64,000 nt of DNA from Pseudomonadota bacterium (GTDB lineage: Bacteria > Pseudomonadota > Alphaproteobacteria > RF32 > CAG-239): assembly GCA_018362935.1 (NCBI GenBank), contig JAHALQ010000005.1:62490-126489 (forward strand), read 5' to 3'. Position 1 is the stretch's first letter. Each line of letters opens with the position of its first letter. Of this stretch, positions 4,835 through 41,007 are shown in pieces. A program made the translations under genes and the position numbers. The notes below the pieces were generated by a model. That model was given only the letters and a program-made list of their open reading frames with translations. It made no database searches and was not told where the DNA came from.

Positions 4835-4837
4835 CGG

Positions 4838-6619: not shown

Positions 6620-6888
6620 TACTTATCTCCGGAGTTCGAATTTTGGTTATTCTGATAGTGTTTTTCCAAAATATCGTACAGCATGCCGCTTTCGATATTA
6701 TTATACTCCACGCCGTCAATCGTAATATTCGGCCCTTTGGAGCATTGGTCACAGCAGCGCAGCCCGGTCAGTTCGACCTCGGCTGACAGGTTATGGCTTT
6801 CAAGAAAATTTTGGATTACCTGAAGATTTTTCGAATTTCCGCGTGCAAAACAGGAACTGCCCATACAAACTTTGATTGTCGAAGCCAT
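6619..6888 (-). CDS. thioredoxin-like [2Fe-2S] ferredoxin
   Basis: C-x4-C (CMGSSC) and CC-x2-C (CCDQC); start set at MASTIKV because GGAGG lies 6 nt upstream, and the track ORF start at 6912 falls inside the RBS; 89 aa, same length as the paralog at 3372-3641. Confidence 0.65.
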   Translation of the reverse strand: MASTIKVCMGSSCFARGNSKNLQVIQNFLESHNLSAEVELTGLRCCDQCSKGPNITIDGVEYNNIESGMLYDILEKHYQNNQNSNSGDK

Positions 6889-6920
6889 TTTTTCCTCCGG
6901 CTGATAAAACACTTGTAAAA

Positions 6921-8347: not shown

Positions 8348-8348
8348 C

Positions 8349-9608
8349 ATGGAAGCCAAAACCGAAACCCGCACAATCCGAACCGATATAGCCGTCGCCG
8401 AATATCTGCGCAAGCTCGACGCGGCGGTCGGCGAATATGACGCGATTTATATCAACGTTTCCAAACTTGAAAGCAAAAACATCCGCGATTCCCACCGGCA
8501 GGAACTGGCCGACACTTTTGCAGCTTTCGTATCCAAAGCGATGGCGCGTTATTTTTGGTTCGCCAATGAAGACGTCATCGTCATTTACAACCGCCGCATC
8601 AAAGACGAAATTTTATCTTGCCTGGTCAAAATCCGTTTTATGTTTCACGACGACGAACTGCTCAAAAATTCCGACAATCTGGAAGCAATCGGCTTTGTCA
8701 AATTTTATAACATGGCCGATGACAAAAGAGAATTTTACCATCTTGTCAGCAAATTGAGCCACCAGCAAAACCCGGTCAAACTGCAGACAAAGAAGACCAA
8801 TCCCTTTGTTGTCAACACAATAGCTTCCTCTGCGCCCGCCAAACAGAAAAAACCGCTCACGCCGGACATTTTGGCGCGCGTTCAAAAAATACTGTCCGTC
8901 GCAGATTTTTCCAGCTTTATCCGCCGTCAGGCAATCTGCGCGGTCATCGGAAAATCGGCGCCGCTGCGTGTCTTTGAAGAAGTTTATGTGTCGATTCCAG
9001 ATTTGCGCGAAATGCTGCTTCCCGACATTGACCTGGTCGCCAATCCGTGGCTGTTTTTGTCGCTGAGCGAAACGCTGGACAAACGCGTTCTGGAAACGAT
9101 CGGACGCCATGACGACGGCTCGTTGATTGGAAATTTCAGCGTCAACATCAACGTATCGACGATTTTGTCAGATGAATTTCTGGCTTTCGACGAAAGTATC
9201 AGCGCTTCAATGCGCCCGAGCATCATTCTGGAGCTTCAGCTCGTAGATATTTTCAGCGACATCAAATCTTTTGTTCTGGCCAAAACTTTTGCCCAGGCGC
9301 GCGGATACAAAATCTGCATAGACGGCATCTCGGTTGACAAACTTAAATATCTTAATCGCGCCAATCTCAATTGCGATTTGATGAAGATTATCTGGCACCC
9401 GAGCTTTATGGACGTGATAAACGAAGACAAACATTTTATGGACTATGTTAACAAGGCAGAACGCGCCAAAATGATTCTCTGCCGGATTGACGACCCCTCC
9501 GCAATTGAAGTCGGCAACTCTCTGGGCATTAATCTTTATCAGGGTCGATATGTGCAAAGGCTCTTAAATGCCGTTGCGCCCAAAGTTCCTTTTACGCTTC
9601 GCAAGTAA
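8349..9608 (+). CDS. degenerate GGDEF-EAL protein, tandem paralog of 7067-8347
   Basis: Same architecture and colinear motifs (ANPWLFLSLSETLDK; ICIDGISVDKLKYLNR...KIIW; ILCRIDDPSAIEVGNSLGINLYQGRY); start lies 1 nt after the upstream stop. Confidence 0.55.
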   Translation: MEAKTETRTIRTDIAVAEYLRKLDAAVGEYDAIYINVSKLESKNIRDSHRQELADTFAAFVSKAMARYFWFANEDVIVIYNRRIKDEILSCLVKIRFMFHDDELLKNSDNLEAIGFVKFYNMADDKREFYHLVSKLSHQQNPVKLQTKKTNPFVVNTIASSAPAKQKKPLTPDILARVQKILSVADFSSFIRRQAICAVIGKSAPLRVFEEVYVSIPDLREMLLPDIDLVANPWLFLSLSETLDKRVLETIGRHDDGSLIGNFSVNINVSTILSDEFLAFDESISASMRPSIILELQLVDIFSDIKSFVLAKTFAQARGYKICIDGISVDKLKYLNRANLNCDLMKIIWHPSFMDVINEDKHFMDYVNKAERAKMILCRIDDPSAIEVGNSLGINLYQGRYVQRLLNAVAPKVPFTLRK

Positions 9609-9644
9609 ATCCCCTCTGCAAGCCCGTATTTTGTGCAATAAACA

Positions 9645-9673
9645 AAAGCTCCCGCCTGAACGGGAGCTTTCTT
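9645..9673. terminator. bidirectional intrinsic terminator
   Basis: AAAGCTCCCG-cctgaa-CGGGAGCTTT hairpin followed by CTT, between convergent genes. Confidence 0.45.
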
Positions 9674-9684
9674 AAGAATTACGG

Positions 9685-9867
9685 TTAATTTGCCTGCAGG
9701 CTTCTGCGTAACATTTCATCTTTTTTACGGAGCTTTTCTTTCTTGAGCTGCTCAATTCTAATCATATTTTTCCAGATGTGGCTTTCTTCCTCTCTGAGAG
9801 CGGCCTCAAGCTGCGCATGCTGGACTTTCAAACTTTCGATGGTAGCCTCAACTTCCGTATACACCAT
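9685..9867 (-). CDS. DUF465 (YdcH-like) coiled-coil protein
   Basis: 60 aa with a ...LKKEKLRKKDEMLRR motif typical of DUF465; AAGGAGA RBS. Confidence 0.55.
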   Translation of the reverse strand: MVYTEVEATIESLKVQHAQLEAALREEESHIWKNMIRIEQLKKEKLRKKDEMLRRSLQAN

Positions 9868-9954
9868 AATATATCTCCTTTTAAAAGGTGATTTATGCTA
9901 TATATTATAATCATACTTTTAATAAATTGCCACAAAAAAATACAGGAGTAACAA

Positions 9955-10344
9955 ATGTTTGATTTGGAATGGTATCAAAGCCTCGGCAAACCTGCCCTGA
10001 CTCCGCCGCCGGAAGCGTTTCAGACCGTATGGCCGGTGCTCTATATTCTGATGGCCGTATCTTTTTATTTTTATCTGAAACAAACGCCCAAAATACAACG
10101 GCCGCTTGGCATCATCTTTTTCTGCCTGCAATTATTCCTGAATTTTCTGTGGAGTCCCGTCTTTTTCGGCATGCAGCGCATTGGCAGCGCACTGTTGGTT
10201 TTATCGCTGCTGATTGTGACCGTCGCCTGTACGGTCTGGATATTCAACAAAACATCACGCCTTGCCGCCGGGCTGCTGTTACCGTATTTTGTCTGGATTC
10301 TTTTTGCCTGGTATCTCAATTTTGAAATCTGGCGGCTAAATTAA
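9955..10344 (+). CDS. tspO: TspO/MBR family tryptophan-rich sensory protein, N-terminally short
   Basis: WYxxLxKPxxxPP, W-rich transmembrane segments, C-terminal LNFEIWRLN; only 129 aa, a TAA 2 codons upstream rules out an extension, so TM1 is absent. Confidence 0.6.
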   Translation: MFDLEWYQSLGKPALTPPPEAFQTVWPVLYILMAVSFYFYLKQTPKIQRPLGIIFFCLQLFLNFLWSPVFFGMQRIGSALLVLSLLIVTVACTVWIFNKTSRLAAGLLLPYFVWILFAWYLNFEIWRLN

Positions 10345-10462
10345 AACCATAAAACAAAAAGCCGGATGGCGTGTGTATACAAAGTGTTTTGCAAGGCAAG
10401 AAAAATTTTAGCGTACAATAAAGACCGCGCAAAATTGCTCTGAATGAGCCGTTACACGCATT

Positions 10463-11602
10463 TTAATCTTTGCCGATATTAATATTACGGTTAATATTGA
10501 CGGAAAGGATAATGCCGAAAGCCGCCATAACCGAAAGGATAACAGTGCCGCCGTAGGATATTAACGGCAGGGGAACGCCGACAACCGGAATCAGGCCGAG
10601 CACCATCGCCATATTAATCATGACATAAAGAAAAAAGTTTGTCGCCAGGCCGACCGCCGCAAGTTTGCCGAAATAGCTGGTCGTACGCAAAGCGAAAGCA
10701 TAGCTGTAAGCCAGAATCAAAATATTGACAAGAACCACAAAAATAGCGCCAATCATGCCGAACTCTTCCGAAAGCATCGTAAAAATAAAATCGGTGTGCT
10801 TTTCCGGCAGAAAGTTAAGGTGGCTCTGCGTCCCCTTCAAAAAGCCTTTGCCGAATACGCCGCCCGACCCCAATGCGATTTTAGACTGGATAATGTGATA
10901 ACCGGCACCGAGCGGATCGCGCTCCGGATCCAAAAATGTCAGCACGCGGTTCTGCTGATAATCATGCAGCAGATTCCACGCAATCGGCAGAGAGATTATT
11001 CCGCCGAGCAAAACAATTCCGAATTTCCACAATTGCACGCCGACGGCAAAAAACATGGCGCCCGCCGTAAAGACCAGCATTAAGGCCGTTCCCAAATCCG
11101 GCTGTGTCATAACCAGCAGCGACGGAACCAATACCATCAGCAGCGGCACCATAATTCCGCGCATGGTTTCGATATTTTGCAGCGACGTGCCGTGGAAATA
11201 GCGCGCCAAAGCCAGAACCAAAGCAATTTTCATTAATTCCGACGGCTGCAGCTTTATAAAACCGAGGTTAATCCAGCGCTGCGCGCCCATACCGACATGG
11301 CCGCCGACTTCAACAATAATTAAAAGCAGCAATACCCCGAAATAAAAGACATAAGCATAACGCATAAAATACTTAACATCGACCAAGGCCAGCGTAATCA
11401 TGACAACCAGCCCGATGCCGAAACGCAGCAGCTGATTCAATGCCCAGGGATGCCAGCTGCCGTTCGCCGCCGAATACAGCATAGTTACGCCGACTGCGGC
11501 CAAAATAAAGATAAACATGATATAGGCAAAACTTAAACTCTGAATTTTTTCTTTCAGGGTCAAAGACTGGCTTTTAAAACTTGTTTCATAAAATTTATAC
11601 AT
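10463..11602 (-). CDS. mrdB: peptidoglycan glycosyltransferase RodA (SEDS family)
   Basis: FtsW/RodA/SpoVE family multi-pass membrane protein directly downstream of mrdA. Confidence 0.9.
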   Translation of the reverse strand: MYKFYETSFKSQSLTLKEKIQSLSFAYIMFIFILAAVGVTMLYSAANGSWHPWALNQLLRFGIGLVVMITLALVDVKYFMRYAYVFYFGVLLLLIIVEVGGHVGMGAQRWINLGFIKLQPSELMKIALVLALARYFHGTSLQNIETMRGIMVPLLMVLVPSLLVMTQPDLGTALMLVFTAGAMFFAVGVQLWKFGIVLLGGIISLPIAWNLLHDYQQNRVLTFLDPERDPLGAGYHIIQSKIALGSGGVFGKGFLKGTQSHLNFLPEKHTDFIFTMLSEEFGMIGAIFVVLVNILILAYSYAFALRTTSYFGKLAAVGLATNFFLYVMINMAMVLGLIPVVGVPLPLISYGGTVILSVMAAFGIILSVNINRNINIGKD

Positions 11603-22354: not shown

Positions 22355-22597
22355 ATGAGATTAAAAGCACATCATATTCTAAGGGAACGTCTGGCGCCTT
22401 TGCTGATTGAAGAGCGCCTGAAACGAAATTTGCAGCCGGCGCAGATTGCACTGGTCTGCGACTTGTCTGTCGATACCATCAACCAGATAGAAAGCGGCGG
22501 CGCCATGTCTTTCAAAAAATACCTTCGGCTGCTGCGGTATTATAATAAAAAGATAAAACTCGAACTGGTTGATTACAACCCAACCAGTTCAGCATAA
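22355..22597 (+). CDS. XRE-family (Cro/CI-type) helix-turn-helix transcriptional regulator, 80 aa
   Basis: HTH_3-like segment LQPAQIALVCDLSVDTINQIESGG; AAGGAG RBS; lies 25 nt downstream of the RNA terminator. Confidence 0.65.
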   Translation: MRLKAHHILRERLAPLLIEERLKRNLQPAQIALVCDLSVDTINQIESGGAMSFKKYLRLLRYYNKKIKLELVDYNPTSSA

Positions 22598-22783: not shown

Positions 22784-23071
22784 TCAAACGCGTTTAAACA
22801 CCCCCTCCTCTATCTCTGGCAAAAAACTGCTGATACGCCCGGGAATAAAATCAAGGCTGTCGACCCGAGCTAACGACGGGCCTTTGCGGCAGGCTAATAT
22901 CATCTCGTCAAGTTTTTCTTCTTCGCCGCGCATGAGGATTTCGACACTGCCGTCGGCAGCGTTGTGCACCCAGCCGGAGATTCCGCCGATACGCTGCGCC
23001 TCGCGAACGGCAAACCAACGATAGCCGATTCCCTGCACGCGGCCTTTAATTTTGATGTAGACCTCTTTCAT
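22784..23071 (-). CDS. acyP: acylphosphatase
   Basis: VxGxVQGVxFR N-terminal signature (IKGRVQGIGYRWF) and a GWV motif. Confidence 0.85.
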   Translation of the reverse strand: MKEVYIKIKGRVQGIGYRWFAVREAQRIGGISGWVHNAADGSVEILMRGEEEKLDEMILACRKGPSLARVDSLDFIPGRISSFLPEIEEGVFKRV

Positions 23072-23565
23072 TATTTCAAAAAATCTTCAATCTCATACAA
23101 TTCTTTTTTGCGCTCGGCCAATTTTGCGGCGGCTTCGTCATCCTTGCCCCACTTTTTTTCTTGGAAAAGCTGTTCCAGATAAGCTGCCTGATAAGCCTGC
23201 TCCGCACTTATCCGCTTTTTGACCAAAGCGGCCGCCAGCAGGACGGAACGCATGTTCAGCGCCGCCAGATAATAAGCGGCCAGTTCGCGATCGCTCAGAT
23301 TTTCCAAAAAGGCTTTTAAGCGATAACCGGACTGCTGGTTTTCCTCACTGACATCCAGCCCGTGGGTTTTCTTGAATTTGCCGTCAAATTCTTTTTCAGC
23401 CCACGCAATCAGAGGCTCCCAGTGTTTCTCCTGCTCCGCAATCAGTTCTCTGTCGGTTCCCCAGAACAACAGCATATCCGTGGCCGTATATTTCATCAGT
23501 TTGTCGATAATCTCCGGACGGTATTTCTTGACATCGGCCGCCGCCTGTTCCAGCTGAGTAGACAT
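23071..23565 (-). CDS. ATP12-family F1-ATPase assembly chaperone (short form lacking the usual N-terminal ~70 aa)
   Basis: C-terminal two-thirds are colinear with the ATP12 family (HWEPLIAWAEKEF..., LAAYYLAALNMRSVLLAAALV, KKWGKDDEAAAKLAERKKEL). Confidence 0.55.
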   Translation of the reverse strand: MSTQLEQAAADVKKYRPEIIDKLMKYTATDMLLFWGTDRELIAEQEKHWEPLIAWAEKEFDGKFKKTHGLDVSEENQQSGYRLKAFLENLSDRELAAYYLAALNMRSVLLAAALVKKRISAEQAYQAAYLEQLFQEKKWGKDDEAAAKLAERKKELYEIEDFLK

Positions 23566-23574
23566 ATCGTTCTC

Positions 23575-25701
23575 CTATTTTATTTGCAAAGACTTTAATA
23601 TACCTTTAGCGGTATTCTTCAAATCTTTCAAGCCCTGTTTAAGCTGTTTCTCGGTTCCTTCAACCACGTTCTGGGTTGTTGCCTTAACGCCGCTCGGTTT
23701 GGGAAAACGGCTGGCATAGGACGTACCTTCCAAAGCGGTGTAGCATGGGCTGCCGTCGCCGTTTAAGAATACCTGCGAGCCAAGATAAGACACCCCGCCG
23801 GTTGCCGCAACGCCGACAATCGTTCTCAGCGCCTGCTTGTCATCAATGCCGACTTTCGGATTGTCCAATGTGCCGCCGACCTTAATGAATGAAGCCAAAG
23901 CCTGCGTAACGTTGCCGCTGGCAAGTTTGTTCATCGACGGTTCAATCGTAAAATTAAGTTTGTCGTTCATTAAATTAACTCTGCCGTCGCTGACGATGGT
24001 CAGCTGTTTTGAATCAAACGCTATCCCGCGCGGAAAAACCGCCGTTCCTCCGGCTATATCCGCACGCACCACCGCGCAGGTCAAATCAAGCTGATTGGCT
24101 TTGCGGGTATCTATTTTCAAAATGTTTAATATCTGCGTCAGAATATTGCCCTTCAAAAATTCCAGCGCGCCGGTCTGCATAACCGATTTATCGACAATCG
24201 CCACCAAACGGCCGTTCATATTGTTGACCAGCTGGCGGTAGGTCGTGCCGACCGATGTGCCGTTGGCATAAATATCGACGTTTCCACCGCTTAACACGCC
24301 GAAATCGCTCTTGCCGCTGACAGCAAAATCCGAATGCAGATTTTGCAGTTTCATATTCTGGCTGGTCAAATCAAAAACCACCTTATGCTGGGATGAATCA
24401 ACTGTCAGCTTGCCGTCAATTTCGCCGCCGCCGAATTTCAGTTTCAGCGGAGAAGCCGTCAATAAGCCGTTGTTAAGTTTTACGGATGCATAAACATTGT
24501 CCGCCTGTACAGCCGGATCAATTATCAGTTTACCGATGCTCACAACAGCTTCGCCGTTAAGCTCATTCAGAACCTGATACGGAATTTTTTCATCCGAAAC
24601 GCCGGTCAGCGCATGCGCCTCGGCAATCAGCGGCGGCAGTTCAAAAGCCAGTGGCGATGATTTGGCATTAAGGCTTTCCAGATTAAAGCGGTCGCTTTTC
24701 AGATTAGCCTTAACCCAAGGTTTTTTGCCGTTCCATTTGGCATCAATGTTTCCGGTCACCAGATTATTGGCAATATTGAGCGTGTTAATTGCCGCTTTAG
24801 CGCCGTTGGCATCGCCGTCAACGCGCGCTTTCAGCGTCGTTTCGGGCGCGCCGAAATTGCCTGCCGGATTATACAGGTTGCTTTCAAAGGCGTAAACCGG
24901 CTCATCCGTCAACACGCCGGTAATGCTGCCGTTAAGATTAATGTTTGCCTTGTAGGCCGAAGCGCTCAGCAAAATCGGATAAGCCGCATCTTTTTGCATA
25001 AGAGTATTAAGCGAACCGAACGTCGCCTGGCCGTTAATTGCATCGCCGTTATAAATGATATCAAAATCAATATTGATTTTCTCATCCGCCCCCGGAACTT
25101 CCATTGCAATTTTTTTAATCGCCGCATTATAGACGGTTTTGCCGTCAATATACTGTACTTTTCCGTTTTCAATTAAAACGTCGTGCGCGGCAAAACCGGC
25201 CAGCAGCGCCAACTGCGGATTTTCTTTGAGCTGTTCGGCACTGACAGGCTTGCCGTCTGCAATCTTGGCCGCCTGTACTGCTTTGACTTGCGCCGGTTTG
25301 TCTGCCGGGCCAAAATCCCAATTGGCTGTGCCGTCGGCTTTTTTCTGGAGATAAACTTCCGGGGCGCTGAGCAAAATTTTATCAATGACAACCTCTTTTT
25401 TCAGCAGCGGCAGCAGTGCGAATTTGACTTCCAGCTGTTTAACTTTCAGCATCTGCGGGTTAGACGCCCATTCCGGATTCGCCAGCTCGACATCGTTAAC
25501 CACCACGGTCGGCACCAGCGATATGCCAATCTCGGCATTGCCGTTAATACTGAGTTTCCGACCGGTTTCGCGCAGCACAATCTCTTCGGCATAGGACTTA
25601 TATTTATTCAGGTCAAAATGGCGGATTACCAAATATCCGCCGATAGCCAGAACAATCAGCAGGCTGAAAATAACCGTCGCTAAAATTTTGATAAACTTCA
25701 T
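23575..25701 (-). CDS. AsmA-family outer-membrane assembly protein
   Basis: N-terminal transmembrane anchor plus a long beta-rich AsmA-like region. Confidence 0.7.
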   Translation of the reverse strand: MKFIKILATVIFSLLIVLAIGGYLVIRHFDLNKYKSYAEEIVLRETGRKLSINGNAEIGISLVPTVVVNDVELANPEWASNPQMLKVKQLEVKFALLPLLKKEVVIDKILLSAPEVYLQKKADGTANWDFGPADKPAQVKAVQAAKIADGKPVSAEQLKENPQLALLAGFAAHDVLIENGKVQYIDGKTVYNAAIKKIAMEVPGADEKINIDFDIIYNGDAINGQATFGSLNTLMQKDAAYPILLSASAYKANINLNGSITGVLTDEPVYAFESNLYNPAGNFGAPETTLKARVDGDANGAKAAINTLNIANNLVTGNIDAKWNGKKPWVKANLKSDRFNLESLNAKSSPLAFELPPLIAEAHALTGVSDEKIPYQVLNELNGEAVVSIGKLIIDPAVQADNVYASVKLNNGLLTASPLKLKFGGGEIDGKLTVDSSQHKVVFDLTSQNMKLQNLHSDFAVSGKSDFGVLSGGNVDIYANGTSVGTTYRQLVNNMNGRLVAIVDKSVMQTGALEFLKGNILTQILNILKIDTRKANQLDLTCAVVRADIAGGTAVFPRGIAFDSKQLTIVSDGRVNLMNDKLNFTIEPSMNKLASGNVTQALASFIKVGGTLDNPKVGIDDKQALRTIVGVAATGGVSYLGSQVFLNGDGSPCYTALEGTSYASRFPKPSGVKATTQNVVEGTEKQLKQGLKDLKNTAKGILKSLQIK

Positions 25702-25704
25702 GAA

Positions 25705-26637
25705 CTAACTCTCCAATGCTAACCCCAGAATTGACAAAGCCGTTTTAAAATGTTCCGGAAGCGGGGCACAAATTTCCAGTTTTTTATTATATATTCCCGA
25801 CAAATCAATTTTATAAGCATGCAAAAAAAGTTTATTGGCTACGCCATCGATTTTTTCTTTTAAGCGCCCGAAATATTTATCGTCGCCGACAATCGGACAG
25901 CCCAGATATTCCATATGCACGCGGATTTGATGCGTCCGCCCGGTCTGCGGCCGCGCCTCAACCAAAGCAAACTTATCGGCCAGATTGTCCAGCACACGGT
26001 AATCCGTCAGTGCCGGTTTGCCGTCCGCACTGACAACCGTTTTGTCTCCGCTCTTGTCAAGGCGCGCTTTAACCTGCCCTCTTTCCGGCTGCGGACAGCC
26101 GTTGACAAGAGCCAGATAGGTTTTGTGCAAATCGCGTTCGCGAAATGCCTTTGTCAAAAGCTCCGCGCTTTTGCGGCTGCGCGCCAAAACCAGAATTCCG
26201 CTGGTTTCCTTGTCAATCCGGTGAACCAGCTTTGGCGCTTCTTCATAATCATAACGCAGCGCATTAAGCATGCCGTCAATATGCCGCGTTGTGTTGGTGC
26301 CGCCCTGTACCGCAATACCGGAGGGCTTGTTCAAAACGATGATTTCGGCATCCTTATAAATGACCAGCGAGCGGATAAATTCGGCATCCCGCGCCAAAAC
26401 GCCCTGTTTTTCGGCCGTACCCGCGGCTTCGTTGTCCAGCGGCGGCACGCGGACTTCCTGACCGGCGGCAAGCTTAAGCCCGGCTTCGGCCTTTTTGCCG
26501 TCAACTTTAATCTGTTTGGTACGCAGAAGCTTGTTGAAACGCCCCAGCGAAAGCCCCGGATAATACTTCAAAAACCAGCGGTTTAGCCGCATACCGTCGT
26601 CAACATCCCGAACTTTGACCAATTCCACGCCAGACAT
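25705..26637 (-). CDS. rluC: RluA-family 23S rRNA pseudouridine synthase (RluC/RluD-like)
   Basis: S4 domain followed by the catalytic motif HRLDKETSGILVLAR. Confidence 0.8.
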   Translation of the reverse strand: MSGVELVKVRDVDDGMRLNRWFLKYYPGLSLGRFNKLLRTKQIKVDGKKAEAGLKLAAGQEVRVPPLDNEAAGTAEKQGVLARDAEFIRSLVIYKDAEIIVLNKPSGIAVQGGTNTTRHIDGMLNALRYDYEEAPKLVHRIDKETSGILVLARSRKSAELLTKAFRERDLHKTYLALVNGCPQPERGQVKARLDKSGDKTVVSADGKPALTDYRVLDNLADKFALVEARPQTGRTHQIRVHMEYLGCPIVGDDKYFGRLKEKIDGVANKLFLHAYKIDLSGIYNKKLEICAPLPEHFKTALSILGLALES

Positions 26638-26651
26638 ACTTTTTTCTTTCT

Positions 26652-27011
26652 CTATAAGCAGGCTTTTACCAGCCGCATTCCCAAAAACAAAAAGGCCGCG
26701 CCGGCAGCCAGCGACCCAAACATATAAACCAGACCTTCCACCGTTTTCTGGTTATTTACCAGCAAGCCGAAATCCAGCATATACGTTGAAAAAGTCGTAA
26801 AACCGCCGAGCAGCCCGGTGATAACAAAACTCCGCAGTTCCGGCCGCATATCCGTTTTGGCGGCAAAATACTCAAATGCCATGCCGATAAACAGCGCACC
26901 GAGAATATTTACCAGAAAAACGGCCCAATGGCTGCCGATACGCAGGCAAACCAAATGCCGCAGCAGAGAACCGATGCCGCCGCCAATAAAAACTCCCAGC
27001 AGATTAATCAT
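26652..27011 (-). CDS. crcB: fluoride channel CrcB/Fluc
   Basis: Four transmembrane helices, GxxGxxLR and TGxxGGxTTFSTF motifs; start at MINLLGVF, overlapping the rarA stop by 8 nt. Confidence 0.8.
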   Translation of the reverse strand: MINLLGVFIGGGIGSLLRHLVCLRIGSHWAVFLVNILGALFIGMAFEYFAAKTDMRPELRSFVITGLLGGFTTFSTYMLDFGLLVNNQKTVEGLVYMFGSLAAGAAFLFLGMRLVKACL

Positions 27012-28323
27012 TTTTTGTCCCTTTGGCTCTTTGTTTCTCGGCACGCAGTTTGTCAAAATAGTCAACGCGCTTTTTAACCTCGCGCTCAAATCCGCGGTCA
27101 ACCGGATGATACAGCTTGACCCGGCTCATGCCGTCCGGAAAATAATTGGCGCCCGAAAATCCGTCTTCGCAGTCGGGGTCATATTCGTATCCTTCGCTGT
27201 AACCGAGCTGCTTCATCAGCTTGGTCGGCGCGTTGAGAATATTCTTCGGCGGCATCAGCGAACCGGTTTTTCTTGCCAAATCCCGTGCCGCATACATCGC
27301 CTTATAAACGCCGACCGATTTCGGCGCCGTTGCCAGATACGCGGCCAGCTGCATAATTGCCAGATCGCCCTCCGGAGAGCCCAAACGGTCATAGGTTTCC
27401 CAGCAGGCAATTGCCTGCGTGACGGCATTGGGATCGGCCAGCGACACGTCTTCCACCGCAAAGCGGGTCATGCGCCGCAGCAGATATTTCGGGTCTTCGC
27501 CGGATTCCAGCATGCGCGCCACCCAATATAAAGCCGCGTCCACGTCAGACCCGCGCAAAGACTTGTGCACCGCAGAAATCAAATTATAATGGCCGTCGCG
27601 CCCTTTGTCATAAATCGGCGCGCGCGAACGAATAATTTTGACGATGCTGTCCTTGTCAAAAATTTCGCCGTTTTGCGCATAATTCCACACGCTTTCCGCC
27701 AAATTGAGAATATAACGCCCGTCGCCGTCGGCGGTTTCTTTCATAAATGTCCGCGCTTCATCGTCAACCGGCAGTTTGCGCCCTTCTTCTTTTTCGGCGC
27801 GTGCCAGCAGCTCTTCAAAATTATCAACGCTGAGCCGGTTCAGCACAAACACCTGGCACCGCGACAATAAAGCGGCATTAAGCTCAAAGGACGGATTCTC
27901 GGTCGTCGCGCCGACCAAAATAATCGTGCCGTCCTCAACATAGGGCAGAAATCCGTCTTGCTGCGATTTGTTGAACCTGTGAATTTCATCGACAAACAAC
28001 AGCGTTCCCTGCCCCTGATGCGTGCGGCGCTCCTGCGCATATTGAAAAACGCGCTTTAAATCCGCCACACCGGAGAAAACCGCGGAAATCTGTTCAAAAT
28101 AAAGCTTGGTATTTTCGGCAATCAGGCGCGCGATGGTCGTCTTGCCGCAGCCCGGAGGCCCCCATAAGATAAAAGAAGAAATCTTGCCGCTCTTAATCAT
28201 CCGCCCCAGCGGCGCATTATCGCCCACGACATGATCCTGCCCCACCACTTCAGACAAAGTACGGGGACGCAGCCTGTCGGCAAGCGGGCGCTTAACTGTT
28301 GATGAAAAAAGAGTTTCTTCCAT
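27004..28323 (-). CDS. rarA: replication-associated recombination protein A (RarA/MgsA AAA+ ATPase)
   Basis: Walker A GPPGCGKTT plus the MgsA C-terminal domain. Confidence 0.9.
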   Translation of the reverse strand: MEETLFSSTVKRPLADRLRPRTLSEVVGQDHVVGDNAPLGRMIKSGKISSFILWGPPGCGKTTIARLIAENTKLYFEQISAVFSGVADLKRVFQYAQERRTHQGQGTLLFVDEIHRFNKSQQDGFLPYVEDGTIILVGATTENPSFELNAALLSRCQVFVLNRLSVDNFEELLARAEKEEGRKLPVDDEARTFMKETADGDGRYILNLAESVWNYAQNGEIFDKDSIVKIIRSRAPIYDKGRDGHYNLISAVHKSLRGSDVDAALYWVARMLESGEDPKYLLRRMTRFAVEDVSLADPNAVTQAIACWETYDRLGSPEGDLAIMQLAAYLATAPKSVGVYKAMYAARDLARKTGSLMPPKNILNAPTKLMKQLGYSEGYEYDPDCEDGFSGANYFPDGMSRVKLYHPVDRGFEREVKKRVDYFDKLRAEKQRAKGTKND

Positions 28324-28383
28324 GATTCTTCCGATTCGCATAAAATGATATCGTAATATAGCAGAAACTTTATGATTTTACAT

Positions 28384-30741
28384 CTATTTTTTAGTAAAGG
28401 GATTTTCAACTTTTGACGTGCTGTCAACGGCAAAAGCCTTTTCTTCCAGCCACCATTCGTCCGACGCCGGTTTTGTTCCGCGTCCCCGTTTTTCATTATC
28501 ACCGTGCCATTTGTCAGAAATGTCGCTGGCCATAACGCTGTTAATGTCGGTTTCTTCCGGCATTTTGCTTTTCGCATCGTCATAAGCGGTATTCATAAAT
28601 TGTTTCAGTTCGGTTTCATCTTCAATGCCCAAATCCATGTCATTGAGGACTTCGTCGACCGTCGGAGTCCCCGCATCCTGAATATTGCGGCGGCTGATAA
28701 TCTGCGCATCCAAACCGTAACAAGCTTCTTTTATTGCCTTTTCCTTAAATTTTTCGTCTTTGATATAATGGATATTGCGCGCCAAAATCGGGCGGTTATA
28801 ATACCCTTCTGCCAAAACGACCTGATAATCTCTGGTTTTAATGCGCAAATTGCGTTTTGTTTCAAAATCTTTGGCCAGACGATAAAAATAATTGGCGTCG
28901 GCAAAACCTCTTTTATAACGCAGCGACCGCCGGTTATCCAACGAAATCTGCACCGACTTGGTTGCAAAAAGTGCCAGTTTTTTCAGTTGGCGGCTCATTT
29001 TTTTATTATCCTCCGCCAGAACGATTTTATAAGTGGAATTTGAAACGATTTCTTCAAGCGTTTCTTTGGTATAAGTATTTTCCACGCTGTTCAGGCTGTT
29101 GCACAACAGCAAAAAGGACGTGCGCATCGACGGCCCTTTGGCGACCGCTTCGGACAGGGTCCGCACTTTTAGCATCTGCCCGACATCATCAAGCACCACC
29201 AGAAGCGGAAACGCGCCTTTTGCCTGTCCCTCGATGATGCCCTGCTCCAAAATCAGTTCCATGAACATCCGGCTGACAAATTTGGCGCTTTTGGTGTTGG
29301 CGACCACATACACCGTCACCGGTTCCGGCCGGCCGGTTTCGTTGTTTTTGATACCGCGAAACTCCGACACGTCAAAATCGTTCATACCGGTTTTTTCGCG
29401 AATAACCTGGTTAATGAAACTTTTAAGCGGTTTAACCATACAGACAAAGACAATTTGCCGCTGCTGGCGGGACAAATACAAAAATTGTTCCAACCCGCGG
29501 ATAACATTATTGCCGTAATTAAACAAACCGGCTTCAACCACCAGGGTTTCAAGCCATTTTCGCCAATCGGCGCGATCCCCTTCGTCTTTAGAAGTCAGAT
29601 AATTCTGCAGCAGCCAGTCTGTCAGCATGCCCAGACACAAATCCTTCCCTTTCCATGAATCCGGAATACCGTCCCAGCTGCCGATCGGCACATAATCGTC
29701 CGGGCTGAATTCAGGCGAACGTTTCAGTTTTTCAATCGCTTTGTCCACACACGCACGCGGCATCAACAGATAATAGCTGAGCAAAACCTCACGCTCATCT
29801 TTCTTCAAAGAGTTTTTTTCCAGAATCTTATCCAGAAAATAATCATTGGCCATAGCCTGCGAAACTTTTGCCGTCAAAAATGCCAACATCGCGTTCATAA
29901 CATTTTCGCACAGCCAATACCAATAATTGCTGTCTTCATGCTCTTCGTCGGACAAAACCAGATAAGACGCGATTTTCTTAAGATAATCATCGCGTTTTTG
30001 TCCCTTTGGCGGCAGTCTGTCGATACTGAGCGGATTCCACTTAGGATAAAAAATCCCCTTGTCGGTATCATCGGCCAAATCCCAGTTAAAATAAAAAACC
30101 TTGCCGATTTCGGCACGGTGCCCGCTGGTATGGCGTGCCAAAGTACCGGCATTGTCAACCGCCAAAACGCTGACGTTGTCTGACCGCAAAATCGAAGGAA
30201 TGGCGACGGACGAGGTTTTTCCGCTGCCGGTTTCGCCGATGCAAAGTATATTTGAAGGGCGGCTGACACCCAGGACATAACTCTGAAAACGCCCCAGCAC
30301 CAGCAATATGCCTTTATGCAGACCCATTTTTTCAATATCGCCCAATTTAGCAAAATGAGTATTGAGAATATACCAGAAGTTAAAGGAATAAGAGCTTTTC
30401 ATAAAAGCAAAATAAAGCGCAAACAGCGACACCAGCGGCGCGCTCAGCGGCAGCAGCAGTATCCAGTTCAGGCTGTACGTCCGGAAACCGCGAACCAAAG
30501 CCTCCCACCAGCTTGCATAAACGGCAAAAATATGAAACGGGTTATCCCAAATGCCGAAATCGCCGTGCGTAAATAAATGCGCGTGCGCGCTGCCGTCCCG
30601 AAAAACAAACCAGTGCACCGAACCAAACAGGAAGACCGAAAAAAACATAAAGAACACAAACGTAAAAGCCAGCACTAAAATAATATTCAGGAGCGCTTTC
30701 TTTGGGCTGACTTCGTCTTCAAGTGTTAAATCTGTGGTCAT
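28384..30741 (-). CDS. type IV secretion/conjugation coupling protein (TraD/TrwB/DotL-like T4CP), 785 aa
   Basis: Two N-terminal transmembrane helices; Walker A GETGSGKTS with downstream LAVDNAG (the TrwB/TraD-type GKS/T P-loop rather than the VirD4 GKG form); Walker B-like LLVVLDDVGQM; long acidic C-terminal tail. Confidence 0.7.
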   Translation of the reverse strand: MTTDLTLEDEVSPKKALLNIILVLAFTFVFFMFFSVFLFGSVHWFVFRDGSAHAHLFTHGDFGIWDNPFHIFAVYASWWEALVRGFRTYSLNWILLLPLSAPLVSLFALYFAFMKSSYSFNFWYILNTHFAKLGDIEKMGLHKGILLVLGRFQSYVLGVSRPSNILCIGETGSGKTSSVAIPSILRSDNVSVLAVDNAGTLARHTSGHRAEIGKVFYFNWDLADDTDKGIFYPKWNPLSIDRLPPKGQKRDDYLKKIASYLVLSDEEHEDSNYWYWLCENVMNAMLAFLTAKVSQAMANDYFLDKILEKNSLKKDEREVLLSYYLLMPRACVDKAIEKLKRSPEFSPDDYVPIGSWDGIPDSWKGKDLCLGMLTDWLLQNYLTSKDEGDRADWRKWLETLVVEAGLFNYGNNVIRGLEQFLYLSRQQRQIVFVCMVKPLKSFINQVIREKTGMNDFDVSEFRGIKNNETGRPEPVTVYVVANTKSAKFVSRMFMELILEQGIIEGQAKGAFPLLVVLDDVGQMLKVRTLSEAVAKGPSMRTSFLLLCNSLNSVENTYTKETLEEIVSNSTYKIVLAEDNKKMSRQLKKLALFATKSVQISLDNRRSLRYKRGFADANYFYRLAKDFETKRNLRIKTRDYQVVLAEGYYNRPILARNIHYIKDEKFKEKAIKEACYGLDAQIISRRNIQDAGTPTVDEVLNDMDLGIEDETELKQFMNTAYDDAKSKMPEETDINSVMASDISDKWHGDNEKRGRGTKPASDEWWLEEKAFAVDSTSKVENPFTKK

Positions 30742-30746
30742 TGATG

Positions 30747-31886
30747 TTAGCGGCTGTCTCTTCCCCGGTTGATTATTCTCTCGTCAAACTCTTTTTTAAC
30801 CTCTTTTTTCGGTTCCTCTCTGACGACTTCTTTTTCCAGTTCCTGTTTCATTGCCACGCGCACTTCCAGCTCCCGGCGTTTGCGCTCTTCAATTATTCTG
30901 CGCAATTCCTCGTTATGCGACTTGGCTTTGTTTTCCTGTTCGGAACGGATATTTTTAAGGGCGTCTTCATCCTTGACCGGCGGTTTTTCGGCTCCGCGCC
31001 GAAATACCTTTTTGCCCAGTTTCATAAGGCTTTCTATACTGATACCCTTGTCATTGGCAAAATCCAAAACGCCGAATTCGCGCCCGTCCCCCAGAAAAAT
31101 ATCGCTGATATCGACACCGTTAAAACCTTTGGCTGCTTTCTTTTTGGGAGCCATTAGGCGTGCCAGTTCTTCCTTGTTGGGCACGCGCCCCAAAGCCTGG
31201 GCAATCTGCTGCGGCGTAATGATGCATTCGCTCAAATCAAGTTCCATAATATTGACGCCGGTAAAATCGCAGCCCGTAAAATCCACGCCGCGCAAACTCA
31301 CTTTGCTTAAATCTATCTTAGCCAGATTAAGCAGCGTCAGATTCATTTTTGCCAGATTAAGCTTATGCGGATAATATTTGGCCAAATACTCAATCAGCGC
31401 CTGTAATTCTTCTATGCCAAGCTCGTCAATCTCAATATCAAGCAGAATGGCGTTTTCCAAATCGGCATCCTGCAATTTGATACCGTTAAGTTTAGCACCC
31501 GTAAAATTAGTACCGTGCAAAACCGCGCCGGACAATACCGCTCCGCTTAGATCGGCGCCGGACAAATTGGCATCGGTCAGATTAGCGCCCGAAAAATCAA
31601 CCCCGCGCAAATCAGCGCCGGAGAAATCAACATTGGTCAGGTTTGCAACCGAAAAATTGGCGTTTTTAAAACTTTCGTTGGCAAATTTGCCGTCTTCCAG
31701 ATTTTTTCCGACAAAATCGATTGTGTTCAGAAATGTCCCGCGCCCGACATCATTTTCCGCAGCATTCGACACCGCCTGCCAGACCGATTTGTCGTCGCCG
31801 ATGGAATAAGAACTGCCGGCTGCCGCCCGGCTTTCCTGTATTTTGGAACGAATAGTGTCGATTTTACTGCTTTTGTCGTCTGCCAT
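30747..31886 (-). CDS. pentapeptide-repeat protein with a charged coiled-coil C-terminus
   Basis: Tandem A(D/N)LxG repeats (ANLTNVDFSGADLRGVDFSGANLTDANLSGADLSGAVLSGAVL...); the track ORF starts at TTG 31913, the ATG at 31886 has an AAGGACGG RBS; ends 5 nt before the T4CP start. Confidence 0.75.
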   Translation of the reverse strand: MADDKSSKIDTIRSKIQESRAAAGSSYSIGDDKSVWQAVSNAAENDVGRGTFLNTIDFVGKNLEDGKFANESFKNANFSVANLTNVDFSGADLRGVDFSGANLTDANLSGADLSGAVLSGAVLHGTNFTGAKLNGIKLQDADLENAILLDIEIDELGIEELQALIEYLAKYYPHKLNLAKMNLTLLNLAKIDLSKVSLRGVDFTGCDFTGVNIMELDLSECIITPQQIAQALGRVPNKEELARLMAPKKKAAKGFNGVDISDIFLGDGREFGVLDFANDKGISIESLMKLGKKVFRRGAEKPPVKDEDALKNIRSEQENKAKSHNEELRRIIEERKRRELEVRVAMKQELEKEVVREEPKKEVKKEFDERIINRGRDSR

Positions 31887-31968
31887 AAGCCAACCGTCCT
31901 TATATTCTTGCAACTTAACCTATATCATAAATTATCTTTTGCCATTTTACAAACAAATTATGACAAGC

Positions 31969-33729
31969 TTACTGCAACAGACATTCAAAACGGTTGCTGG
32001 TCAGCTGGCCGCATATTTCCGCCAGTTCGGCTGGCTGGCCGTAAATGCGCAGGCGATACCAGTTTCTGCCGTTGACAACAGCTTCTTCAATCTTGGGTTG
32101 GTGCTTTTTCAGCAATCCGAAACGCGAGCTGAGATTTTTCCAATCCGCCACAGCGCTGTTATAATTTTCATAAGAGCCGAGCTGCGCCAGCCGCGCGTTT
32201 TTCGAAGCCGGAGTCCGGGAGGAGCTTTGCGGACGGCGGTATTTATACCCTTCTTTGACAACCTCTTCCAGCCAGTTGTCGCCGCTGGCCCACCCGCTTT
32301 GTTCCATAACCGGCCGCGCTTTCATCTGCATTGTTACGGCCGACAGCATTTCCACAAGATGGCGGTTAAAAGCCTCGCGCAGCGAAACGGCTATATCGTT
32401 TGTTTTGCCGCGCAGCAGCGTTTTGCTGAACGGCGAAAGCCCGGCGTTAAAATAAAGGTTGCGCAGTGCCATTGCCCGCTCTGCTTTAATTTGCGCCGAC
32501 TTCTGCTCCAATATTATCAGGCTGATTTTGTCATTAAGAAGACTGATTTTTTCATCAACCGGCGCCCGGTATGCTTTTTCCTGCTTTTTCACGGCTTTGC
32601 GGACTTTGGCAATTTCCCGTTCGTTGGCGTCATAATCAGCGTCGGCCTGCTCCACGAGCCGGTAAGAAACTTCAACCTGCGTTAAAATGGCGGCGGCCAA
32701 ATCATCAAACACCGTCCGCTGGCTTGCGCGCCAGGCTTCGCTGCCCGGCTTGCTTTCCTGCAGTTGGCGGACATCATTCAACAGCTTGTCGGCAATGCTC
32801 ATCGCCTTGTCATACAAAGCCTGCTCATAAATATCGTTTTCAACTTTCAGGCCGTTGACATCCAAACGTCTGGTCAGCGGATAATCCCGCAAAACATTGT
32901 GCCGCACCTCGCCGACACCGTAATTTTTGACTTTGGCTTTGGCCAGCGCAAACTCGTTGCGGTTGCGCACAGCCGCTTCCTGAAAGATTTCAATGGTATA
33001 ATTCTTGTCAAAATCTTCCAGTTCGTAAAAACGCCTTCCCTCCAGCCGTATTTCCTTAGGCAGCACTTTGGTCAGCTGTTCATATTCGGCCATATTCATG
33101 GCAAACGACTGTTGGAATTCGCGGAGTTTCAACAACGCCACATCCAGATTTTTCTTATATTTTAAGTCTTCCGCACTGAGACTGCCGTTGCGGTTCATCT
33201 TATTTTTCAACTCATCGGACTTCTTTTGTTCGGTCCGCATCATCCGCGCGATTTCTTTCAGTTTGCGATCGGCAAACCAGGCGTCCTGATGTACCCGAAT
33301 TGCCGCCGAAGCCAAATGCTGGGCAGATTTGTTATAAAGGTAGTTGTCCATAAACTGCGAACTGTTTTCAAGATTGGCAACGGCGTAAATCGTGGCAAAT
33401 TCCAACACGCGCGACGCCGCAAACAACCTGCTTTGGTCGTTCACGTCAGAGCTTTTGATATTATTGATAATTTCCTGCGGCTTAAGATTGGGATTTTGGT
33501 TGTAAATTTTCTTGCTGAGGTTCTGAGTGGCCGCATCGGCATTATATTTGGCGGCCCGCGCCATTGTCGCGTATACGTCCAGTTTGCCCTTGACCGGTTC
33601 GGGATTCGAGGCAAAAACCAGCGTATCCGTTTTTATGTCATTGTTTTTGCTTCCGTTATCAACACTGCACGCTGCCAGCGCCATAAGAGCCAAAACCGCG
33701 CCAAATTTAAGCTTACCGGAATTTTTCAT
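31969..33729 (-). CDS. lipoprotein with TolC-like helical repeats and a C-terminal SPOR (peptidoglycan-binding) domain
   Basis: Lipobox LAAC|S; a TolC-like helical/coiled-coil region that I could not tie to one family; C-terminal NWYRLRIYGQPAELAEICGQL motif typical of SPOR domains. Confidence 0.5.
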   Translation of the reverse strand: MKNSGKLKFGAVLALMALAACSVDNGSKNNDIKTDTLVFASNPEPVKGKLDVYATMARAAKYNADAATQNLSKKIYNQNPNLKPQEIINNIKSSDVNDQSRLFAASRVLEFATIYAVANLENSSQFMDNYLYNKSAQHLASAAIRVHQDAWFADRKLKEIARMMRTEQKKSDELKNKMNRNGSLSAEDLKYKKNLDVALLKLREFQQSFAMNMAEYEQLTKVLPKEIRLEGRRFYELEDFDKNYTIEIFQEAAVRNRNEFALAKAKVKNYGVGEVRHNVLRDYPLTRRLDVNGLKVENDIYEQALYDKAMSIADKLLNDVRQLQESKPGSEAWRASQRTVFDDLAAAILTQVEVSYRLVEQADADYDANEREIAKVRKAVKKQEKAYRAPVDEKISLLNDKISLIILEQKSAQIKAERAMALRNLYFNAGLSPFSKTLLRGKTNDIAVSLREAFNRHLVEMLSAVTMQMKARPVMEQSGWASGDNWLEEVVKEGYKYRRPQSSSRTPASKNARLAQLGSYENYNSAVADWKNLSSRFGLLKKHQPKIEEAVVNGRNWYRLRIYGQPAELAEICGQLTSNRFECLLQ

Positions 33730-39279: not shown

Positions 39280-41007
39280 ATGAAGAATGCCAGAATATTT
39301 GCTTTTGCTGCTCTGTTGAGCCTGTGCGGAACAGCCCGTGCCGCGGTTGTTCCTGAATATGCCACCAACACCTATAAGAATCACGAATTGTCGCGCGCCG
39401 AGCAAAAATGCATTGACGAAGGCTATAAGATTACTTATGCCAACTGTTCCAATCAGACGGCGCCGGCCGAACGCTGCCCGCATCACGATTCGTACTACCG
39501 CAGTTGTTCTCAGGAGCAATGGTGCCGCAATAATAATTTTACCTTCCTTGAAAAAGACTGCAAAATCCCGCTTTATCCGCACAAAATGTGCGATAACAAG
39601 TTCCCGCTTTACCGCGTTTGCATCGAAAACATCGGCAAAGCCTGTGAAGACAAGGGCTTTGTCCATAAGGACAAATGCCAGCTCAATGACAAAAAGTGCC
39701 CTTATTCGCCCGAATACGGCAAATGCTGCGACAATTGCCCGAAATTCACGCATTCCGTAAATGCCGTCCCCGAGGGCTATGTTGCCTTCGGCGAAACCTG
39801 CACCACCTGTTCCGGCGAAGTCAAAACCAACATCAGGCCGGCAGAATGCGAAGGTTTCCAGAACTGCCGGTACGGGCCGATGAGTTCACAGACGCCATCC
39901 TGCCTGCAAGGAAAGAAGACCTTGTACAGCCTTTGCAAAACCGACGCTATGGTCTGCCAGGAAAAAGGCTTTATCGTCAATTCCTGCGCGGACACGGAAG
40001 ACGCTTTTGATTGCCCCGAAAATCCGAGCTTTAAGCATTGCAAAATCAATTGCCTTAAACTGGCGCGTATCGACAATCCCGAAGCCGATGTCTTTGGCGC
40101 CGACCAGGAAAACCCCATTCTTGACGTAACCAAAAATGAACTGATATCCGTCGTCGGGATGATTGACAAAGACTGCCGCAACCTCGGGCGCCCGACACTC
40201 ACTTTCCGCATTAACAAAAGCAATCTCGAACAATATGCCGGACTGTTCGACCGTTATATTGCCGACGTCAACATCAATCTCATATTTGAAGAACCGGTCA
40301 CCCTCTCGGCCAACGGCAAATACCGCAATGTCAAAATAACCGCGCAGGGCGAATTTGCCGGTTGCCCGCTCAGCGGCCACAAAACCGAAATTCTCGGCAC
40401 TGTCAGTTTTAACAACTTCCCGAATATTTGCACCAATTTTACCGTCTTCCCCAATGCCAAGCTGCTGACCACCGGCAGTATCAAAGGCAATGTGGATGTC
40501 GGCAAAGACGCGGCTCTCGGCATCAAGGGCGACCTCAACGGCGCGCTCAAGGCTCAAAGTTTTGCCGAGATTTTCATTAAAGGTCAGTTGAACTACACGG
40601 ACGAACTAAATAATAACCTTGATAATGAAAGTATCGTCTTTGGCTGCAACTCAAAAATAAAAATCGGCGGCGGCATCAATGCCAAAACGTCCAATGTTGT
40701 CATCAAACAGTGGAGCAAGCTTGACACCCCCTATATCAAAATTACCTCAACCAGTGACAACACGAGCCTGCCAAACACTTTGTCAAGCATACATCTGTAC
40801 AAGTATGCCAAATTGTTCAGCACCTATGAACAAACCGTTTTTCCGCTGGTTGAAAACGACGACGCGCAGTGTGACGACAAATATTACCGGCATCTTGGCT
40901 CCGCCACTGACGCCGCGCTGCAGGAATTCAGCCTGGAACCGTCCAATCGCGGCGAAGACAAATGGCAGTGCCGCAGCCTCACTTTCAAACAGCAGGAGTG
41001 TAACTAA
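39280..41007 (+). CDS. secreted cysteine-rich protein (575 aa) with three C-x-[DE]-[EK]-G-[FY] modules and a beta-rich C-terminal region
   Basis: Signal peptide ...GTARA|AV; modules CIDEGYKITYANC, CEDKGFVHKDKCQ, CQEKGFIVNSCAD; more than 35 Cys in the first 260 aa; the C-terminal half is G/N/K-rich and likely beta-solenoid. Confidence 0.55.
   Translation: MKNARIFAFAALLSLCGTARAAVVPEYATNTYKNHELSRAEQKCIDEGYKITYANCSNQTAPAERCPHHDSYYRSCSQEQWCRNNNFTFLEKDCKIPLYPHKMCDNKFPLYRVCIENIGKACEDKGFVHKDKCQLNDKKCPYSPEYGKCCDNCPKFTHSVNAVPEGYVAFGETCTTCSGEVKTNIRPAECEGFQNCRYGPMSSQTPSCLQGKKTLYSLCKTDAMVCQEKGFIVNSCADTEDAFDCPENPSFKHCKINCLKLARIDNPEADVFGADQENPILDVTKNELISVVGMIDKDCRNLGRPTLTFRINKSNLEQYAGLFDRYIADVNINLIFEEPVTLSANGKYRNVKITAQGEFAGCPLSGHKTEILGTVSFNNFPNICTNFTVFPNAKLLTTGSIKGNVDVGKDAALGIKGDLNGALKAQSFAEIFIKGQLNYTDELNNNLDNESIVFGCNSKIKIGGGINAKTSNVVIKQWSKLDTPYIKITSTSDNTSLPNTLSSIHLYKYAKLFSTYEQTVFPLVENDDAQCDDKYYRHLGSATDAALQEFSLEPSNRGEDKWQCRSLTFKQQECN

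Follow-up and report, generated by a model that had tools for sequence, protein, structure and literature searches.

The stretch of DNA analysed here, a window of 64,000 nucleotides from contig JAHALQ010000005.1 of an alphaproteobacterial genome, carries a gene for a derivative of VirD4-type type IV coupling proteins (T4CP), immediately preceded by a gene for a pentapeptide-repeat protein (PRP). Their coordinates, collected in Table 1 with those of the surrounding features, agree with the initial annotation of this DNA. Only 5 nt separate the PRP stop from the T4CP start in the window, and given this gap the two genes are probably translationally coupled; a longer, TTG-initiated version of the PRP open reading frame (ORF) extends to position 31913. 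The initial annotation placed the pair at the head of an eight-gene array. The downstream genes and their gaps of at most about 60 nt are as it described, but the array starts one gene earlier, with a lipoprotein gene located 82 nt upstream of PRP, and so comprises nine co-directional genes: lipoprotein, PRP, T4CP, rarA, crcB, rluC-like, asmA, ATP12 and acyP. Our results show that nearly all loci fetched from a clade of gut alphaproteobacteria carry the vertically inherited T4CP gene, that PRP is its obligatory neighbour and that both are under purifying selection.

Table 1. The PRP-T4CP pair and the other features of its array in the window
Feature	Position	Strand	Description	Basis
T4CP	28384-30741	-	VirD4-type coupling-protein derivative, 785 aa	ORF, Pfam PF02534, AF2/Foldseek
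PRP	30747-31886	-	pentapeptide-repeat protein, cytoplasmic, 379 aa from ATG	PF00805
Lipoprotein	31969-33729	-	586 aa, heads the array in the clade of the window	lipobox LAAC at Cys21
rarA, crcB, rluC-like, asmA, ATP12, acyP	22784-28341	-	genes downstream of T4CP	Pfam
Terminator-like hairpin	22561-22591	-	12 pairs and T-run, after acyP	consensus scan only

The T4CP matches Pfam family T4SS-DNA_transf (PF02534) with 81.8 bits against a cut-off of 20.1 (E 6e-23) and also exceeds the thresholds for PF12696 (29.2 bits, cut-off 22) and PF10412 (25.4 bits, cut-off 20.5), so that TraG-D_C and TrwB_AAD_bind matches are present as well. It stays far under all curated cut-offs of the NCBIfam T4CP subfamilies compared, which were VirD4 (PRK13897/PRK13850), IncP TraG, Ti TraG, F TraD and CD1115: the best score is that for CD1115 (71.9 bits against 250), and VirD4 gives 56 bits against 728. 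In the AlphaFold (AF2) model, with a predicted local distance difference test score (pLDDT) of 78.7, the predicted fold is unambiguous and consists of N-terminal transmembrane (TM) helices, a RecA-like nucleotide-binding domain and an inserted all-alpha domain. Foldseek searches with this model returned Cagbeta (8dol, E 2e-15), TrwB (6e-8) and DotL (6sz9, 8e-7), followed by HerA and VirB4. A single-sequence phmmer search of the PDB matched no coupling protein, and the family profile reached Cagbeta as the only one (E 1e-12).

Hydrophobic windows of the T4CP start between residues 11 and 96 and correspond to a membrane domain at approximately 13-127, with helices at 13-47 and 93-127. The P-loop GETGSGKTS occupies residues 169-177, the enlarged and strongly conserved all-alpha domain approximately 246-470, and the Walker B sequence VLDD residues 516-519. 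The C-terminal tail (691-785) is acidic, with net charge -11 and pI of 4.4, and bears at 762-785 the motif DWWLEEKAF...NPFTKK, a family motif that was found as DWW(L/M)xExxF...NPF(xxKK) in most of 87 T4CP orthologues scanned. An alignment of 25 T4CP sequences contains 47 invariant residues, many of them aromatic and located in the all-alpha domain. Model and charge profile thus agree with the TM helices, P-loop and acidic tail of the initial annotation. Its assignment to the TraD/TrwB/DotL type has to be narrowed: the protein is a true VirD4/TrwB-type T4CP, not DotL- or TraD-like in particular, and its nearest relatives are alphaproteobacterial VirD4 proteins.

PRP has no hydrophobic segment and matches PF00805 with 105.5 bits (cut-off 20.2, E 8.6e-31); its PDB matches are Np275/276, Qnr and MfpA. 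A conserved helical insert breaks the beta-helix (residues 56-225), which is acidic with a pI of 4.3. The charged C-terminal half, with pI of 9.3-9.7, is basic and ends with ...NRGRDSR, in accordance with the charged, Arg-containing C-terminus noted initially. PRP does not belong to the Qnr/MfpA family, as it scores 27-52 bits against cut-offs of 240-500 and has 379 aa with extra domains versus approximately 180-220 aa. It lies below the NCBIfam cut-off of the PipB2 family too.

The distribution of the pair was followed in a genome scan with one genome per species and loci limited to +/-10 kb. At least 163 species-level genomes encode a T4CP relative, and synteny was compared in 80 loci fetched from these species representatives. 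The identical T4CP is found on four metagenome contigs with unchanged neighbours. A protein search gave 73 T4CP clusters with 27-99% identity, nearly all of them 740-796 aa long, the few shorter ones coming from short contigs; all clusters carrying a source name are labelled as uncultured Alphaproteobacteria. Titles of the 80 listed loci refer almost exclusively to gut metagenome-assembled genomes (MAGs), for example "Proteobacteria bacterium CAG:495", "Candidatus Scatocola" and "uncultured Azospirillum". Ca. Scatocola is placed by NCBI taxonomy in Rhodospirillales incertae sedis, and we take the genomes with T4CP relatives to correspond to the GTDB order RF32.

Gene order is the same in nearly all 80 loci: truA and gfo/idh/mocA in one orientation, then, in the opposite one, lipoprotein, PRP, T4CP, rarA, (crcB), rluC, asmA, atp12 and acyP. 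Identity to the proteins of the window is 83-97% for rarA, 51-93% for PRP, 32-85% for the T4CP and 32-79% for the lipoprotein in the fetched loci. PRP is the most conserved among lipoprotein, PRP and T4CP, with identities of 48-69% where those of the T4CP are 27-48% (alignment A3). Of the 87 T4CP ORFs recovered, nearly all have full length, mostly 739-842 aa, and the few shorter or unrecovered ones are situated mostly at contig ends. In nearly all loci, the T4CP start lies between about -44 and +26 nt from the PRP stop; two loci fall outside this range. Against the closest relatives, the ratio of nonsynonymous to synonymous substitution rates (dN/dS) is about 0.09 in the T4CP and 0.03 in PRP, and 0.09-0.14 in the lipoprotein; these values are approximate, as dS is near saturation. 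The suggestion of the initial annotation that the T4CP might be fixed in the chromosome next to PRP is borne out by the 80 loci of the clade as well as by two sister clades with different neighbours, described below. Two loci (L089 and L050) have no lipoprotein beside the pair, nor has either sister clade; its absence from the two loci marks the PRP-T4CP pair as the invariant core.

Two side observations concern individual loci. In a subclade, a protein of 423-451 aa with a conserved FYHExxHxLQ (HExxH metalloprotease-like) motif is inserted between T4CP and rarA (L053:12277-13548, L060:5292-6575, L071:12353-13690 and, duplicated, L076:8282-9637 and 9634-10932). Neither Pfam nor NCBIfam has a family for it, and it may be cargo of the PRP-T4CP module or an accessory to it. 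Loci L089 and L090 lie on contigs titled as Lactobacillaceae/Lactobacillus MAGs, which carry an alphaproteobacterial PRP-T4CP-rarA-rluC-asmA block and are probably mis-binned.

An exhaustive profile search for more distant relatives gave a graded series of 154 cluster representatives at E <= 1e-30, and context look-ups together with a metagenome scan sorted this wider T4CP family into four groups. In the first sister clade, the order is pepN, a secreted protein of 373 aa without Pfam or NCBIfam family, PRP (400 aa, tail ...RVKRQRQRS), T4CP and a flavodiiron protein. In the second one, pepN is followed by PRP (328 aa, PF00805 E 8e-24), T4CP and a prepilin-peptidase-like gene (peptidase A24). 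The basic, Arg-containing C-terminus of PRP is found in all three PRP clades. As the pair occurs in the sister clades with other neighbours, the link between PRP and T4CP predates the clade of the window and has survived changes of context. A large PRP-less group (L110, L113-L176; for example L126:8152-12217) comes from human-gut and other metagenome contigs with housekeeping surroundings; here, two related TM proteins (163 and 413-504 aa), matching no Pfam or NCBIfam family, are encoded directly upstream of the T4CP. In the last group (L095:2888-6963 and L096), two lipoprotein genes come directly after the gene of another orphan T4CP, which has 755 aa and a canonical LDEM Walker B. Their products are a TPR-like protein of 393 aa and an LpoB-family protein of 201 aa, and the surrounding genes are rsmE, bamB-like and sigma-factor genes.

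Among plasmid proteins, VirD4 of alphaproteobacterial megaplasmids come closest, with 22-24% identity over approximately 68% of the T4CP. VirD4 of the Erythrobacter aureus plasmid NZ_CP031358 is located in a full virB2-virB11/virD4/mobA cluster and scores 400 bits against the PRP-less chromosomal group. The T4CP of the window has the same domain order as this plasmid protein and shares with it the motifs TSGYR, (V)F..NW, YP.WNPLS and W.G.E...M..DW. It differs by an insertion of approximately 60 residues in the all-alpha domain (NDYFL...LSYY...PIGSW), common to all chromosomal clades and absent from plasmid VirD4, by the acidic WW...NPF tail, by the lack of adjacent virB genes or relaxase, and by the changed Walker B (DE to DD) with loss of the arginine finger and the Gln.

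These catalytic positions were mapped by family-profile alignment to Cagbeta, and a census was taken over 81 core-family sequences (Table 2). The profile pairs the DD of VLDD with Cagbeta D550-E551, the residue 18 positions further on with Cagbeta A569, and a later Asn with the Gln of Cagbeta "FQS". In TrwB, the Walker B Glu is presumably residue 357, which gives the same +18 spacing to Arg375. TrwB Arg375 is a trans arginine finger; Cagbeta lacks arginine at this position and uses cis Arg241 in its Walker A instead, and its ATPase activity is abolished by K244A and by E551A/Q (PMC9886983). The Walker A position of the T4CP equal to this cis-Arg is Gly (G172).

Table 2. Residues at catalytic positions of the T4CP family; numbering of the T4CP in the window
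Position	Core family	Sister clade 1 (pepN, 373-aa protein)	Sister clade 2 (pepN, PRP)	PRP-less group	Plasmid VirD4
Lys175	K 81/81	K 14/14	K 6/6	K 62/62	K
Asp518	D 80/81	D 14/14	D 6/6	D 62/62	D
519 (catalytic Glu)	D76, N5, E0	E13, D1	D3, E3	E 61/62	E
537 (Arg finger)	P26, K16, A10, E8, others	0 R	R 6/6	R 62/62	R
548 (Gln)	N50, D24, S4, E2, Q0	Q 12/14	Q 6/6	Q 62/62	Q

As to the integrity of Walker B and arginine finger, which the initial annotation had singled out, the catalytic site is not intact: the P-loop Lys and the Walker B Asp are kept, but the Glu is replaced in 81 of 81 core sequences, the arginine-finger position is unconserved and the Gln is lost. The catalytic residues decay stepwise and in PRP-linked clades only, with the P-loop constrained throughout. 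Binding of nucleotide without efficient hydrolysis would be the simplest reading of these substitutions. The changes of Glu, arginine finger and Gln therefore argue against a working translocation motor.

Neither a channel gene of a type IV secretion system (T4SS) nor a relaxase is present in the window, according to both the Pfam-annotated identical contigs and a phmmer scan, as the initial annotation had stated. Plasmid VirB2/4/6/8/9/10/11 and MobA queries gave 0 matches in 176 loci (+/-10 kb) and the window, all six-frame ORFs (2.95 Mb) serving as targets; VirD4, the control query, gave 175 matches. A literature search (T4CP with pentapeptide repeat, RF32 with T4SS, orphan T4CP) found no description of a PRP-T4CP module, and neither did any entry in four profile hidden Markov model libraries.

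The lipoprotein encoded upstream of the pair has a helical domain resembling the fold of outer-membrane factors (OMF; TolC/CusC/NodT), including their helical barrel, and a C-terminal SPOR (PF05036) peptidoglycan-binding domain at approximately 514-583. No Pfam family is matched above threshold over the lipoprotein, OEP included. The hairpins that form the membrane barrel of OMFs are absent: the segments at their places are short and charged (LEGRRFYELEDFDK and RLDVNGLKVEND), and we therefore read the protein as a lipid-anchored periplasmic helical protein that would not form a pore. We know of no described OMF-SPOR fusion.

What the pair may do is suggested by its ancestry, its partners and its degenerate active site. 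We give about even chances to the T4CP being an exapted, hydrolysis-impaired coupling protein that acts as membrane receptor or scaffold for PRP. In such a scenario, a VirD4-type coupling protein would have been captured from an alphaproteobacterial conjugative or T4SS lineage and would have become a vertically inherited core gene in a clade of gut alphaproteobacteria. It would have given up the role of translocation motor and turned into a nucleotide-binding membrane receptor or scaffold. PRP would dock on it, probably in the way canonical VirD4 proteins dock positively charged C-terminal substrate signals: the basic tail of PRP would contact the all-alpha domain and the acidic tail of the T4CP, and complementary charge may reinforce the contact. 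Probable co-transcription of the pair with rarA and envelope genes suggests that the complex has a housekeeping role at the inner membrane, and in the clade of the window it may connect to septal peptidoglycan via the OMF-like SPOR lipoprotein.

Two end roles are candidates. In the first, a DNA-mimic-like PRP would control a DNA-handling enzyme; such DNA transactions are indicated by the acidic helix of PRP, by rarA and by the descent of T4CPs from DNA-binding proteins. In the second, the complex would serve the envelope or division, to which the SPOR lipoprotein and asmA point. The most specific formulation, that of a VirD4 exapted as a T4SS-independent, hydrolysis-dead, vertically inherited receptor of a DNA-mimic-like PRP, possibly tied to the septum by the OMF-SPOR lipoprotein, is put forward tentatively, with somewhat less than even chances. 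If true, this would be, to our knowledge, the first coupling protein with a cellular role outside secretion or conjugation.

Several points weigh against a receptor freed from secretion. The scan for channel genes covers the window and +/-10 kb of each locus and leaves room for a T4SS elsewhere in the genomes; it used single type IVA queries, which Dot/Icm-type or F-type components could escape. In Rickettsiales, T4SS genes are scattered and still conserved order-wide. Asp can at times stand in for the Walker B Glu, which would permit some residual hydrolysis. Finally, the mirror-tree partial correlation of 0.56 for PRP and T4CP gives weak support to co-evolution, and we do not rely on it.

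The main rival explanation builds on the first of these points and holds that the T4CP is a working coupling protein used by a T4SS encoded elsewhere, with PRP as its dedicated substrate or adaptor. The T4CP indeed keeps the whole architecture, that is membrane domain, nucleotide-binding domain, all-alpha domain and P-loop, and its nearest relatives are true plasmid VirD4 proteins beside virB genes. A basic, Arg-containing C-terminus resembles translocation signals of the VirB/D4 type and is kept by PRP in all three PRP clades, which suits the candidate substrate of the initial annotation; among secreted effectors, PipB2 and SopA-like proteins contain PRP modules too. On the other hand, conservation is stronger in PRP (dN/dS about 0.03) than in the T4CP, which is unusual for an effector, and the pair sits inside a housekeeping operon clade-wide, with no channel genes within +/-10 kb in the 176 loci. 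Walker B Glu, arginine finger and Gln are all replaced, and equivalent changes kill the Cagbeta ATPase (PMC9886983). We consider this explanation possible but rather unlikely.

More doubtful by far is a T4SS-independent export route of three genes, in which the T4CP would be the inner-membrane pump, the TolC-like SPOR lipoprotein the outer duct, and PRP or DNA the cargo. The lipoprotein does adjoin the PRP-T4CP pair in nearly all genomes of the clade and has the highest residual rate correlation with the T4CP in the mirror-tree analysis (0.64). Its hairpin segments are, however, short and highly charged, with no evident membrane pore, it is missing beside the pair in L089, L050 and both sister clades, there is no periplasmic adaptor, and the catalytic residues of the T4CP are lost. 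Least credible is the last remnant of a decayed integrative element envisaged by the initial annotation, a pseudogenising relic of an integrated conjugative element retained by chance: an orphan T4CP with degenerate ATPase motifs and no relaxase or channel genes nearby might suggest it, but ORFs intact in nearly all loci across 27-99% identity, fixed synteny and low dN/dS (about 0.09) exclude a decaying relic, and the 47 invariant residues, the gain of a family-specific C-terminal motif and the absence of base-composition anomaly and of tRNA genes in the window also speak against it.

Replacement of FtsK by the T4CP was considered because rarA comes after ftsK in many proteobacteria, and was rejected: there is no PF01580 (FtsK_SpoIIIE) match at E <= 0.01, and the top 50 structural matches contain no FtsK chain. 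With the defence models of PADLOC, the T4CP gives only a match of P-loop length to mad8 (E 2e-4, residues 156-179), which is no meaningful defence match, and PRP and the lipoprotein match none. The strong hairpin behind acyP likely ends the transcription unit.

Elsewhere in the window, a cluster that resembles a sensory hydrogenase module, in keeping with an anaerobic gut lifestyle, lies on the minus strand at 3659-6912. It encodes a 593-aa [FeFe]-hydrogenase-like protein bearing FeS and Fer4 domains, a phosphatase of the SpoIIE type (391 aa) and a thioredoxin-like 2Fe-2S protein. Two adjoining plus-strand genes at 7067-9608 encode proteins of 426 and 419 aa, whose sole annotation is a weak EAL match on the first. 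ORFs without Pfam family are located at 39280-41007 on the plus strand (575 aa, with a signal-peptide-like N-terminus) and at 54308-55735 on the minus strand (475 aa).

Coupling proteins are held to be obligatory parts of conjugative or effector type IV systems, and orphans are usually written off as debris of mobile elements. Here, an orphan T4CP is a conserved gene of widespread uncultured gut alphaproteobacteria, genomically bound to one PRP partner. Its components come from superfamilies already known; what is new is how they are combined, together with an inheritance fixed in the chromosome and catalytic residues that have been lost systematically. The series from plasmid VirD4 through chromosomal, catalytically intact proteins to the PRP-linked degenerate copy lets the domestication of a secretion ATPase be studied, and it provides a testable partner for a pentapeptide-repeat protein, a member of a family with mostly unknown functions. 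It also calls for caution in genome annotation and in predictors of conjugation or integrative and conjugative elements that count T4CP genes. If independence from T4SS holds, PRP-linked T4CPs could be a new functional class; if a T4SS exists elsewhere, the pair would be a conserved substrate-receptor unit in abundant gut commensals.

Among known systems, Cagbeta-CagZ, DotL with its adaptors and TraD-TraM may serve as working analogies for PRP-T4CP. Cagbeta-CagZ of Helicobacter pylori (8dol) contains the closest solved structure and presents a T4CP ruled by a dedicated small partner on the all-alpha domain. Like the T4CP of the window, Cagbeta has no Arg at the TrwB-R375 position; unlike it, Cagbeta retains the Walker B Glu, carries the cis-Arg in its Walker A and works as an active ATPase in a full Cag T4SS, and CagZ is not a pentapeptide-repeat protein. 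In DotL-DotM-DotN-IcmSW of Legionella and TraD-TraM of the F plasmid, the T4CP is a scaffold whose (acidic) C-terminal extension recruits partners or adaptors. No homologues of DotM, DotN or IcmSW were seen near the T4CP of the window; by sequence it resembles VirD4 more closely than DotL or TraD, and there is no relaxosome. The pentapeptide-like repeats of DotG were rejected as a parallel, having a different 10-residue motif. For the lipoprotein of the window, the nearest parallels are the OMF lipoproteins CusC, NodT, OprM and TolC and SPOR proteins such as RlpA; it differs in having no barrel-forming hairpins and no Pfam OEP match. With Qnr, MfpA, Np275/276, PipB2 and HetL, PRP shares the right-handed beta-helix repeats (PF00805) and an acidic, DNA-mimic-like surface; it is set apart from them by its conserved helical insert, by a basic, coiled C-terminal half of approximately 150 aa, and by its obligatory genomic link to a T4CP.

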